Notes: a model not told the origin generated them from the sequence alone. A stretch of 64,000 nt of DNA from Escherichia coli (GCF_048403405.1 NZ_CP183129.1), one strand, 5' to 3'. Shown: positions 48,384-60,703, counted from the first letter of the stretch. Translations and numbers: made by a program.

Positions 48384-48777
48384 TACATTAAATCATCTGG
48401 TTCCTAAATAACCTTATTATGCACTGTAAGTGTATGTTGGCTTTATAAATTGCAATTTTTATATGGGAATTGTTTTGTCAATAGTTACGAAAAGGATAAA
48501 TAAAATAACCACATCTTCTTGGCGTCGAATATTGGAGAGCGATAATTTATAGTAAACTAGATTACCAGAGAAAAGATAAGTGGCAATATATTTGCTGGTG
48601 GCATTTTTATTAAATATTATATGTGTTGGTTTGTGACTTTAAAAAAATTAATTTTTAATAAAAAGGTGATTTATTTCTCATTTTGATTAATATTGAGGAT
48701 CCATTATGATTATCAGTTGTATGTCATAAAAATGAGGGGCTAAAAGCCTCAATGAATTGAGGCCTTTAGAACAGGGG

Positions 48778-49347
48778 TTATATCTTCTTTATATCTAACA
48801 CATCACCCTCCCATACTCGTTTAAATCTTGCTGCATTACTGGCTGTATATAATACCGTATGATGTATATTTCTGTGCCCTAAATAATCTTGTATTAGTCT
48901 GGTGTCTAACCCTTGATTAGCTAAAGCATACCCACAACCATGCCTAAGCATGTGAGGATGAATATTAATATTCATATTGTGACTATATTTCTTACACATC
49001 TTATACACATATTGTCTCGAGATTTTATTTCCTTGACAAGAAAGAAATAAAGAGTCTTCAAAAGGTTTTTTTACTATGTTATCACGTAGTGCTAGCCATT
49101 TTTTTAATAACAGAACAGTTTCTTTTTGCAGGGGATGTACTGTGGATAATCCATTTTTTAAACGCTTGATATATATTGCTGACTCTGAAAAGTCAATGTC
49201 GCTAATCTTTAGTGCAATAAGCTCGCTTACCCTAAGGCCATGTACATATGCCATTTGTAACATGGCTTTATCTCTAATTTCATTTTTTGAACCGTTGATG
49301 GCTTCAAAAAATAACAACCATTCACTATGAGTAATAAATTTGCGCAT
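48778..49347 (-). CDS. FimB/FimE-like tyrosine site-specific recombinase (IpbA-like)
   Basis: 189-aa ORF with the tyrosine-recombinase C-terminal catalytic region (HPHMLRHGCGYALANQGLDTRLIQDYLGHRNIHHTVLYT) closely resembling FimB/FimE; AT-rich context. The ipbA assignment is recalled from the UPEC literature. Confidence 0.7.
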   Translation of the reverse strand: MRKFITHSEWLLFFEAINGSKNEIRDKAMLQMAYVHGLRVSELIALKISDIDFSESAIYIKRLKNGLSTVHPLQKETVLLLKKWLALRDNIVKKPFEDSLFLSCQGNKISRQYVYKMCKKYSHNMNINIHPHMLRHGCGYALANQGLDTRLIQDYLGHRNIHHTVLYTASNAARFKRVWEGDVLDIKKI

Positions 49348-50094
49348 AATATTATCGGTTATACTAATTAAGTTAAAAAATAAACTATAAATACCAGAGC
49401 CTGGTATTATTGCTTGTTTTTTATAAGCAAGTAATGAGCTGGGGTTTAAATTATGCCACTAAATGGATATTCATCAATACCCCGCCAGAGAGATAGTTGC
49501 TCAGTGGGTATAGATTATTATTAGTCAACCAGTGAGCATAAATAAGCACAAGAAGTTGCGTATTATGAATAATGATTCAATGCCATGCTGGTGGTTTTTT
49601 GTGGTGAAAATATTTGTACCTTTTTGTTTACGGATGAAAAATAAACAGCCATATTATTTTGGTTAATTATTGTGTTAGTTTTAACACTCGGTGATGTTTT
49701 TTGTTATAGTGCATTAATTTTTAAATAAAAAAATTCATACATTCATGGATGTAATATATACAAGATACAATGTTAATTTTAGATAAAATATTAATTGCAT
49801 TGGATACTTTTTAAATATGCCGATGTTGAGCTTAATTTTATGAGGGAATGCTATTTCGGGCTGTAGGACTTTTTTATAATCATCTTATAGGGCTCTTTAT
49901 ATTTACAGGAGGGTTTTGAACGATAGTTACATAACGAAGGTTGTTTGTATGCGTTTACAAGCGATTAATTAGATTAGGTGAATTTTAATAAATTAATCTA
50001 TAATCATACAGCAACTATATGAATTATATTATTGACTAAATTTAATTCTTTCATCATAGTTGACATGGCTATTTTATATCAATAGAGGTGATTT

Positions 50095-50724
50095 ATGCAA
50101 AACAGAAAATTTTTAACGCATCATGAAATTAATTTACTACTTCAATCTGTAAAACAAAAGAGTTGCTCTTCACGCGATGTTTGCATGATTTTATTGGCTT
50201 ATTTTCATGGTCTGCGTGTTAGTGAGCTCTTATCTCTGCAGTTGTCGGATTTAGAACTAACTACAGAAAAAATATATATTCAACGGATAAAAAATGGATT
50301 CAGTACAGTCCATCCACTTCAAAAGGAAGAGGTGATTGCAATAACAAACTGGCTGAATGAAAGGAATTCATTAAATGTTAAACATTTCAATGATAACCCG
50401 TGGTTATTTGTTTCCCGAACAGGAAAACCATTATCGAGACAACGATTTTATAACATAGTTTCTGCTGCGGGTAAAAATGCAGGTTTAAATATTAAAGTTC
50501 ATCCACATATGTTACGCCATGCATGTGGTTATTCACTAGCAGATAATGGTGTGGATACCCGTCTTATTCAGGACTATCTCGGGCATCGTAATATCAGGCA
50601 TACGGTAATTTATACTGCTTCTAATTCAATGAGATTTGAAAAAATGTGGGGGAGAGGTGACGCAAAAAAGCAACATTTTGACCCAAAATGTAAACCCAAT
50701 CTTTGTTTAGAAATTCTCGTATAG
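50095..50724 (+). CDS. FimB/FimE-like tyrosine site-specific recombinase (IpuA-like), 3' end overlaps a candidate invertible switch
   Basis: 209-aa ORF, paralog of the preceding recombinase (HPHMLRHACGYSLADNGVDTRLIQDYLGHRNIRHTVIYT); the last 11-17 codons lie inside the inverted-repeat-bounded segment. The ipuA assignment is recalled from the UPEC literature. Confidence 0.7.
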   Translation: MQNRKFLTHHEINLLLQSVKQKSCSSRDVCMILLAYFHGLRVSELLSLQLSDLELTTEKIYIQRIKNGFSTVHPLQKEEVIAITNWLNERNSLNVKHFNDNPWLFVSRTGKPLSRQRFYNIVSAAGKNAGLNIKVHPHMLRHACGYSLADNGVDTRLIQDYLGHRNIRHTVIYTASNSMRFEKMWGRGDAKKQHFDPKCKPNLCLEILV

Positions 50725-59600: not shown

Positions 59601-59647
59601 TCACACAGTGGCAGGAGGGGACCTCCTGCCACCTCAGGGTTGTCATA

Positions 59648-60178
59648 ATGAGTTCTGTAATGAAATTTTCTGTTGTTAATGCAGTAGTGCTGCTGTTGCT
59701 GATTGTACTTACTGGTGTTTTTTATATGAAAAAGTCAAAAGAAATTGCAGTTGTTAATATCGATGCTATTTATAATCAGTCTACCGCCGGAGACATGGCC
59801 AGAAAGCATCTGAATGAGGTTAAGAGTATTCTTGAAAAAGGATATGAGGATGCGCAAAAAGCATTCGCAGATAACGCGAATAAAGAGGCGCTGCTTCTTG
59901 ATGCCAGACAAAAACTGGAACGACAATATGTTATTGAGGAAAATAGCGCAAAAAAGGTGTTATCCCGTGCGATAGATAATGCCATAGGCACATGGAGAAA
60001 AGACAATCCTAAAAATATTGCCGTATTGTCTTCAGGTGTTGTGCTTGCGCATAACGAGTCAGCTGATATCACCAAAGAAGTCATGACTCTGGTTGAAAAA
60101 GAAAATCTGGTTTTTAATAAATTACCCAAAGTGGAAGTGCACAATAAGAATGAAGAGAAACCAGAACAAAGTAAGTAA
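59648..60178 (+). CDS. Skp/OmpH-like periplasmic chaperone homolog (hypothetical)
   Basis: 176-aa ORF with N-terminal hydrophobic segment; weak Skp-like similarity (EIAVVNIDAIYNQ...; IAVLSSGVVLAHNESADITKEVMTLV) judged by eye; 47 nt downstream of the autotransporter stop. Confidence 0.45.
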   Translation: MSSVMKFSVVNAVVLLLLIVLTGVFYMKKSKEIAVVNIDAIYNQSTAGDMARKHLNEVKSILEKGYEDAQKAFADNANKEALLLDARQKLERQYVIEENSAKKVLSRAIDNAIGTWRKDNPKNIAVLSSGVVLAHNESADITKEVMTLVEKENLVFNKLPKVEVHNKNEEKPEQSK

Positions 60179-60703
60179 TCACTAGATTCTGACGATTTCC
60201 AGAAGGGAGATTCAGCAGGCCAGCATCTGTAATCATTCAGATTTGCTGGCTTGCTGCTAAATATGGTTGCTAAGAAAAATAGCAGACCAGTAATTTATTC
60301 AGATTACTGAATATAATAATTTTTCAGGAACGGTTATGCTGAAGGTAGTATGTTTAATCGACACAATTATTTGCTGTGTCTAATATGAGGTGACATTTTT
60401 ATGATCACTGACCAGCAAGACTGACCCGTATTGATTAGCCTGATTATTGGCAACTTATTGGGGTAGTCATTTTGACATCGAATGGGGGAGGTTTCCAGTT
60501 AAGTTCACGAATGCATGATGATTTGCGTTCACATATCGAAGTACTGGTTGACTATACTAAGGATTTTAAGATAACTCACTGATTGTAAGTGGGTTATTGC
60601 GAGGGGGATGATAAATGGTGTCCCCTGCAGACATCTACTTGACGAGGCAGGGGATTGATTGGAATGGTGTTTTTTAGATGTGAGAAATATTTTACCCGCT
60701 ATT

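Follow-up and report, generated by a model that had tools for sequence, protein, structure and literature searches.

A 12.3-kb argW-associated island of Escherichia coli with the ipuS phase switch, the autotransporter gene upaE and a linked gene of predicted Skp fold

What occupies the roughly 12 kb that separate dsdC from a prophage end in an Escherichia coli genome (GCF_048403405.1 NZ_CP183129.1), and do its genes work together? The DNA analyzed here is a stretch of 64,000 nucleotides, called the window throughout, with positions counted from its first letter. A first-pass annotation made from the sequence alone had placed an AT-rich accessory island with a complete phase-variable adhesin module at 48384–60703. 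This description was correct, but neither the named ipu system nor the published island was recognized in it. The segment 48358–60614 is PAI-CFT073-argW with the ipuA-ipuB-ipuS-ipuR-upaE system, and we regard it as highly probable that the 12.3-kb stretch as a whole corresponds to a genomic island already in the literature, the argW-associated one of extraintestinal pathogenic or uropathogenic E. coli (UPEC) with the ipuS phase switch. The ipuS-UpaE system is already known and characterized, and its recognition here adds no new biology. The sole lead going beyond the primary ipuS paper and the passages considered from a review is a Skp/OmpH-like gene downstream of upaE, which is mentioned in neither.

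Identity and extent of the island

Alignment with the extraintestinal pathogenic strain CFT073, as suggested in the first-pass annotation, showed the window to be collinear from dsdA to exactly position 60630, the 3' end of argW, at 98.1–98.7% DNA identity. The CFT073 ipuS/IpuA-IpuB/ipuR-upaE locus has the same genes in the same order, the same 317-bp spacer and identical half-sites of the invertible element, and the encoded proteins are 97–100% identical. The locus in the window and that of CFT073 are one system in two strains. The CFT073 region is arranged as yfdC, argW, an OmpH-like gene, upaE, a helix-turn-helix (HTH) regulator gene, ipuA, ipuB, and dsdC, with no prophage. At loci 100% identical to the island (e.g., in strains MS 69-1 and TUM1226), the RefSeq names are "tyrosine-type DNA invertase IpuA/IpuB", "phase-variable autotransporter adhesin UpaE", and "OmpH family outer membrane protein"; the same names are used at the best full-length match, a near-identical locus.

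Gene content, junctions, accessory status, composition, switch orientation, half-site conservation and the Skp fold were established in this analysis. Inversion, promoter activity, and UpaE function were taken from the literature on the CFT073 locus, which is 98% identical (Battaglioli et al. 2018, mBio, PMC6083910; SVRE study, mSphere 2019, PMC6458436 = bioRxiv 10.1101/494401). The experiments described there bear out the earlier proposal that the recombinases, the switch, the LuxR-type regulator and the autotransporter form one functional unit. The island and its borders are as follows.

48358..60614, no strand: accessory island, 12,257 bp (K-12 junction alignment, genome census, CFT073 collinearity, table in PMC7545054)
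47436..48383, plus strand: dsdC, core flank (RefSeq annotation of the near-identical locus, K-12 junction alignment)
60615..60630, no strand: ATGGTGTCCCCTGCAG, attachment-site (att) core at the island/prophage boundary (K-12 junction, match to the argW 3' end, end of CFT073 homology)
60693..60893, minus strand: torI, first gene of the argW-integrated prophage, right flank outside the island (annotation and K-12 comparison)

The junctions were determined by BLAST against the dsdC-torI region of K-12 EMG2 and lie at 48357/48358 on the left and 60614/60615 on the right. The comparison confirmed that dsdC adjoins torI in K-12 and that about 12 kb are interposed here: 12,257 bp stand in place of 108 bp of K-12, and these 108 bp showed no similarity to the island. 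The island was found where it had been annotated, with edges shifted by 26 bp (left) and 89 bp (right). On the left, the junction is located inside the last dsdC codons, 26 bp before the stop, and 48358–48383 is island sequence; DsdC ends in ...EQVSQYECYTL here and in ...EQVKTTS in K-12. Strains with the island encode a DsdC with a different, longer C-terminal tail than that of K-12. The right junction is located at the argW-derived att core, 78 bp ahead of torI. Positions 60616–60630 (15 nt) of ATGGTGTCCCCTGCAG are the reverse complement of the 3' end of tRNA-Arg argW, and the same 15-mer ends argW in CFT073. According to the open reading frame (ORF) listing and annotation transfer, the gene order is dsdC, ipuB (minus strand), ipuA, the 317-bp spacer, ipuR, upaE, the Skp-like gene, torI (minus strand), and then prophage genes. 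This agrees with the content described earlier, namely two divergent paralogous recombinase genes, a switch, a LuxR-type regulator, a 2637-aa autotransporter, and a Skp/OmpH-like gene.

Any part of the island was found in 259 of 5,426 complete E. coli genomes, and at least 80% of it in 231; most genomes contain the dsdC and torI flanks only. Its presence at the tRNA locus is strain-variable, as it is absent from K-12 and adjoins argW in CFT073. The same content in most E. coli lineages is thereby excluded, and the view of an accessory, horizontally acquired island was upheld. The island is known as a module associated with virulence; according to published figures, 37% of UPEC and 7% of commensal isolates have the ipuA-upaE region. 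An Rfam scan of 47000–62000 gave no match. The island is located between dsdC and tRNA-argW; in the proposed history, a torI-bearing prophage integrated later into argW in this strain and left the island abutting the att core and torI.

The claim of AT-richness held for part of the island. The recombinase/regulator block (48358–51662) has 32.4% G+C, whereas in the remaining 48 kb of the window the lowest other 3.3-kb segment has 38.7% and the mean is 48.4%. The Skp-like gene has 37.5% and the island tail 38.1% G+C. G+C at third codon positions amounts to 26–36% in ipuB, ipuA, ipuR and the Skp-like gene, compared to 48–54% in dsdCXA. The gene upaE, however, which makes up two thirds of the island, has 48.7% G+C overall and 50.5% past its first 1.5 kb, compared to 48.5% in the flank, and its composition is core-like and indistinguishable from the flank. 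The whole island has 43.5% G+C, and the AT-rich label fits only about 4.3 of its 12.3 kb, at the regulatory and the distal end. Left of dsdA, the region 41000–44400, which is evgA-emrK-emrY by synteny with CFT073, is also below average (33–43% G+C); dsdCXA therefore lies between two low-G+C stretches.

The ipuS switch and its recombinases

The two recombinase genes, the spacer between them, and the elements of the switch were located as listed.

48778..49347, minus strand: ipuB, Fim-type tyrosine DNA invertase, 189 aa (annotation, NCBIfam, motifs, CFT073 alignment)
50095..50724, plus strand: ipuA, Fim-type tyrosine DNA invertase, full-length 209 aa (annotation, NCBIfam, motifs, CFT073 alignment; OFF definition from PMC6083910)
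49348..50094, no strand: ipuB-ipuA divergent intergenic region, 747 bp, 28.2% G+C (composition, repeat search, genome alignment)
50684..50958, no strand: ipuS invertible element, OFF orientation (repeats, in-silico inversion, half-site conservation, published description)
50718..50745, minus strand: candidate ipuS promoter, OFF orientation, antisense into ipuA (sequence reading; fits the 5' RACE, i.e., rapid amplification of cDNA ends, description of PMC6083910)
50886..50906, no strand: terminator-like hairpin within ipuS, bidirectional, ACGCAGGT-loop-ACCTGCGT, T-runs on either strand (found on both strands)

In the 317-bp spacer between ipuA and ipuR and the adjoining end of ipuA, 7-bp inverted repeats were found, CAAAATG at 50684–50690 within ipuA and CATTTTG at 50952–50958. 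According to PMC6083910, ipuS measures 260 bp and has inverted repeats of 7 bp, of which the distal one falls within ipuA, and 317 bp separate ipuA from ipuR. In the same description, IpuA has its full length in the OFF state and is 11 residues shorter in the ON state. In-silico inversion at the 7-bp repeats gave an IpuA of 198 aa (209 − 11), as published. CFT073 has both half-site blocks in identical form, and their spacing and orientation agree as well. In the orthologous locus of Salmonella enterica subsp. diarizonae, conservation is 100% over about 29 nt at either half-site, and the interior has diverged. As no natural ON genome was found, the breakpoints rest on the published description and on half-site conservation. 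The window represents the OFF state, since ipuA is full length. A single PacI site is present within ipuS (50923–50930), and the published orientation assay is a PacI digest that makes use of one such site (PMC6458436).

The genes ipuB and ipuA are divergent and their products are 48% identical to each other. Compared to CFT073, 189 of 189 IpuB residues and 208 of 209 IpuA residues are identical. IpuA reached 251 bits with the NCBIfam model "tyrosine-type DNA invertase", above the cut-off of 221. Both proteins contain the motifs GLR, HxLRH, GHR, and (I/L)YT, which fit the catalytic R, H-x-x-R, H, and Y positions; these were assigned by motif search and not by alignment with FimB/FimE.

The intergenic region of the recombinase genes presumably holds the promoters of both. 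It also contains a 25-nt imperfect inverted repeat (49493–49517 and 49994–50018) with 80% complementarity and 476 nt between the arms. This repeat, which lies between the two divergent recombinase genes where the island is most AT-rich, could delimit the real switch or a second one. We consider this extremely improbable, as all 236 genomes compared (236/236) align with the region collinearly and in one piece, and no similarity to the ipuS half-site motif was found in the spacer. Moreover, when each recombinase was overexpressed in CFT073, genome-wide detection of inversions returned only fimS, hyxS, and ipuS (PMC6458436), and imperfect repeats of this kind are common in DNA of 28% G+C.

The transcription start determined by 5' RACE is located inside ipuS and within the full-length ipuA reading frame (PMC6083910). 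A candidate promoter at 50718–50745 consists of a −35 element TTTATA and a −10 element TATACG, separated by a 16-nt spacer; each matches four of six consensus positions, and the predicted start lies within the ipuA coding sequence. The pair agrees with the promoter published as "4 of 6 and 4 of 6" and would supply its exact hexamers. A generic promoter scan of the island was uninformative, with 26 promoter-like sites compared to 29.2 expected from shuffles. The hairpin at 50886–50906 would, judging from its sequence, end ipuA transcription in either orientation.

Taken together with the published work, the Fim-type tyrosine invertases IpuB and IpuA would invert the ipuS element of about 260 bp at its 7-bp inverted repeats. 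In the OFF orientation, as seen here, IpuA is full length, and a sigma-70-type promoter in ipuS would be directed back into ipuA. In the ON orientation, ipuA would lose its last 11 codons and the ipuS promoter would drive ipuR and upaE. Inversion of ipuS by IpuA, IpuB, FimE, and FimX has been reported (PMC6083910), and weak inversion by FimB as well (PMC6458436); the three Fim recombinases are encoded at other loci. Overexpression of IpuB raised ipuR about 1,600-fold and upaE about 33-fold and left dsdC/dsdX unaffected (PMC6458436). The ON state conferred a kidney colonization advantage in mice (PMC6083910).

Several observations weigh against the identification of the stretch with the published island and its switch. 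IpuB scored 204.9 bits, slightly below the NCBIfam invertase cut-off of 221. By our own count, the element measures 261 bp between the repeats and not the published 260 bp. The in-silico inversion ends IpuA in ...DPK-stop without a substitution, whereas a terminal K-to-L or K-to-F change was published; in PMC6083910 itself, the text has K-to-L, and the legend of Figure 1 has K-to-F. An overlapping 9-bp inverted repeat (50674–50682 and 50940–50948) could serve as an alternative crossover; it was rejected, as it predicts an IpuA of 204 aa and not the published truncation by 11 residues. No second argW 3' core or direct repeat was found at the dsdC junction, with one core copy in the whole window, and the island has no P4-type integrase of its own, its only recombinases being the invertases of about 200 aa. 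Finally, the ON orientation was found in none of the 236 switch carriers, and the in-silico ON version reached at most 53% coverage in any of the 5,426 complete genomes.

The native 561-bp region (50540–51100) matched these 236 genomes over its full length, always in the OFF orientation, which suggests a strong OFF bias of ipuS in cultured isolates; consensus assemblies show the majority orientation only, and a minority orientation is invisible in them. As natural variation revealed no ON genome, the claim of inversion rests on the CFT073 experiments. The uniform census could also mean that the module is effectively locked OFF or decaying in natural populations, a silent remnant and not a working switch in this strain. 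An IS66-family insertion in upaE in some genomes (H55), the CFT073 upaE that is marked as frameshifted in RefSeq, and the 28–35% G+C of the regulatory region, which is compatible with H-NS silencing, point in the same direction. However, all five ORFs are intact in the window and the half-sites are identical to those of CFT073, for which switching was demonstrated (PMC6083910). The half-sites are also under visible purifying selection across genera, and as a broth-culture consensus reports the majority orientation, 236 OFF genomes are expected from a switch that is OFF-biased in culture. We judge a locked or decaying module to be very unlikely and a switch held in the OFF state in the window to be the better description.

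UpaE and the Skp-fold gene

Downstream of ipuS, the following features were assigned.

51042..51662, plus strand: ipuR, LuxR/GerE-type HTH regulator, 206 aa (Pfam; CFT073 alignment)
51687..59600, plus strand: upaE, type Va autotransporter adhesin, 2,637 aa, intact (TIGR01414, Pfam families of the orthologue, RefSeq name)
59608..59633, plus strand: conserved 11-bp G+C-rich hairpin between upaE and the Skp-like gene, no U-tract (conservation in four loci; folding energy)
59648..60178, plus strand: Skp/OmpH-fold gene, 176 aa (Pfam OmpH, profile search, AlphaFold2 model, PDB matches, conserved linkage)

IpuR contains a GerE HTH domain only, at its C-terminus (E = 7e-12), and its N-terminal 135 aa gave no Pfam family match; 202 of 206 residues are identical to CFT073. 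UpaE has a barrel domain at aa 2177–2637 (TIGR01414, E = 1.5e-118), with further matches to the AIDA-I, MisL, and ECSE_1600 families. It starts with an ESPR-type N-terminus (MNKIYKVIWN...) and ends in ...GIKYIF, and the Pfam families of its orthologue are ESPR, BigA_3rd, PATR, AC_1, and Autotransporter. By these sequence features, UpaE is classed as a type Va (classical, AIDA-I-type) autotransporter adhesin. In CFT073, UpaE is displayed on the surface and contributes to biofilm formation and extracellular matrix binding (PMC6083910). The protein of the window would likewise reach the cell surface through the type Va export pathway and be displayed there, leading to biofilm formation, binding of extracellular matrix proteins, and adherence to kidney cells.

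A (PQ)6 run is located at aa 2289–2300 (58551–58586) in a Pro/Gln-rich linker of UpaE. The length of the (PQ)n repeat is strain-variable and breaks the BLAST alignment with CFT073. The top-listed terminator-like match (58558–58591) was discarded as an artefact, as it is the PQ-repeat DNA within upaE. In RefSeq, the CFT073 upaE (locus L009, 2316–10267; NC_004431.1) is a frameshifted pseudogene, yet a 271-kDa protein was detected in CFT073 (PMC6083910). The frameshift probably goes back to an error made in sequencing the old reference or to a change in repeat length.

The label Skp/OmpH-like for the gene 47 nt past upaE held. At the sequence level, the support is weak (Pfam OmpH, E = 1.2e-3; OmpH-like PDB chains by family profile, E ~5e-4), and an NCBIfam scan of the protein gave no match. 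An AlphaFold2 model built from a 50-sequence alignment reached a predicted local distance difference test (pLDDT) score of 91.2, and its ten best PDB matches were all Skp/OmpH (probability 0.98–1.00, query-normalized template modeling score 0.30–0.49). In the model, the protein has the Skp protomer fold, i.e., a beta-strand core with a long alpha-helical hairpin. The N-terminal hydrophobic helix (aa 4–27; window 59648–59730 covers residues 1–27) was modeled as one continuous helix, and no AXA-type signal-peptidase site was evident in it. The protein may thus be membrane-anchored rather than soluble like Skp.

Whether this gene belongs to the phase-variable unit was addressed by means of related loci, listed here by their handles.

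L003: Salmonella diarizonae, Skp-like gene downstream of a UpaE-type autotransporter
L006 (1–11200): Escherichia sp., GCA_004212315.1, UpaE-like autotransporter of 2,641 aa and Skp-like gene, PapB- and FaeA-type regulators, no invertases
L008: related locus, Skp-like gene downstream of a UpaE-type autotransporter
L010: relaxase-bearing contig, Skp-like gene downstream of a UpaE-type autotransporter
L012: Skp-like homologue with 31% identity after a 1,675-aa autotransporter
L018 (750–11882): E. coli, GCA_016850335.1, second variant of the whole module, beside an IS66 element
L019 (8549–17666): Salmonella enterica, contig with an IncFII replication gene, Fim-type recombinase, CaiF/GrlA-like gene, IpuR-like regulator (33% identical), 2,313-aa inverse autotransporter

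The upstream gene could be read in six related loci (L003, L006, L008, L010, L012, and L018), and in all of them the Skp-like gene is located 24–57 nt 3' of a UpaE-type autotransporter on the same strand; the context of a 43–44% identical homologue (L011) was unreadable. The cassette of autotransporter and Skp-like gene recurs behind unrelated modules, namely an invertase switch, PapB/FaeA regulators, and plasmid contexts. The hairpin at 59608–59633, within the 47-nt spacer, has a folding energy of −24.6 kcal/mol (z = −2.2). It is conserved in four loci, and two compensatory pair changes in L010 preserve the pairing. It could be an mRNA-stabilizing or attenuating element. The linkage and the conserved hairpin without a U-tract favor co-transcription and a functional tie to UpaE.

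On the other hand, the published operon comprises two genes, ipuR and upaE, which argues against the Skp-like gene as a third member, and plasmid-expressed UpaE was surface-exposed and functional in K-12 without it (PMC6083910). The Skp-like gene is therefore not essential for UpaE. It could be an unrelated passenger of the island with its own promoter, outside the phase-variable unit and of no help to UpaE. A stable hairpin ahead of the gene would suit such a passenger, as would two distant homologues (32–35% identity) that are not linked to autotransporters. The linkage, however, is maintained down to 31% identity and even with other regulators (L006), compensatory changes have kept the pairing of a hairpin that has no U-tract, and no better-than-chance promoter was found ahead of the gene. 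We consider an unrelated passenger rather unlikely.

We tentatively propose, as a possibility and short of an expectation, that the Skp-fold protein is a dedicated, possibly inner-membrane-anchored periplasmic holdase, inherited with giant UpaE-type autotransporters and encoded by the third gene of the ipuS operon via a non-terminating hairpin. The gene would most likely be transcribed by read-through from the ipuS promoter, and its product would assist the periplasmic transit of the 271-kDa UpaE passenger in a supporting, non-essential role. If this is true, the phase-variable unit comprises three genes instead of two, and very large type Va passengers come with a Skp paralogue of their own.

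The second variant of the module (L018) is arranged as recombinase, AraC-type gene, recombinase, IpuR-like regulator (53% identical), 2,632-aa UpaE, and OmpH-like gene. Its UpaE is 56–72% identical to that of the window over the first 500–600 residues and 90–100% (mostly ≥96%) beyond, and this split marks upaE as a mosaic. The boundary falls at about the same place as the step in G+C content within upaE of the window, near 53200. In L006, a short GerE gene is present downstream and the context resembles a P1/P7-like phage-plasmid; the same cassette is combined with another regulatory module. In L019, an invertase, an IpuR-type regulator, and a giant adhesin recur with another adhesin class (invasin/intimin type).

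For the window itself, the gain is a clean annotation in which the junctions are exact, the switch is OFF, and upaE is intact. The OFF orientation in all 236 carrier consensuses and the conserved linkage of the Skp-like gene with UpaE-type autotransporters are possibly useful to specialists.

Comparison with known systems

The locus differs from that of CFT073 in few respects. The argW beside the island is occupied by a prophage in the window and prophage-free in CFT073. The upaE gene is an intact 2,637-aa ORF in the window and frameshifted in CFT073 according to RefSeq, and the length of the PQ repeat differs. A variable argW-dsdCXA genetic island was reportedly described by Moritz and Welch (2006, J Clin Microbiol), as cited in a survey table. 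The entry for PAI-CFT073-argW in the table of PMC7545054 gives IpuA, IpuB, and DsdA, 17 kb, and 44% G+C. Going by this entry, the position between argW and dsdC, the cargo, and the low G+C content (43.5% here) are shared; the published 17 kb include dsdCXA, whereas the strain-variable part compared to K-12 amounts to only 12.26 kb here.

Among phase switches, fimS with FimB-FimE and hyxS with FimX-HyxR likewise combine small Fim-family tyrosine invertases with a promoter element of about 300 bp and short inverted repeats. In hyxS as in ipuS, the first downstream gene encodes a LuxR-type regulator, and cross-reactivity of the recombinases has been published (PMC6083910; PMC6458436). The inverted repeats of ipuS are 7 bp long and not 9 or 16 bp. 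Unlike in fimS and hyxS, one repeat lies within a recombinase gene, so that inversion truncates IpuA, and the output is an autotransporter and not fimbriae.

The Skp-like protein, as modeled, has its fold in common with E. coli Skp (PDB 1SG2, 1U2M), an OmpH-like protein (4KQT), and SkpA of the type IX secretion system (8GL8). It differs from Skp in its low identity (16–20%) and in an N-terminal helix without an obvious cleavage site. Furthermore, its gene is located beside a client-like gene, whereas skp is part of the bamA-skp-lpxD housekeeping cluster.

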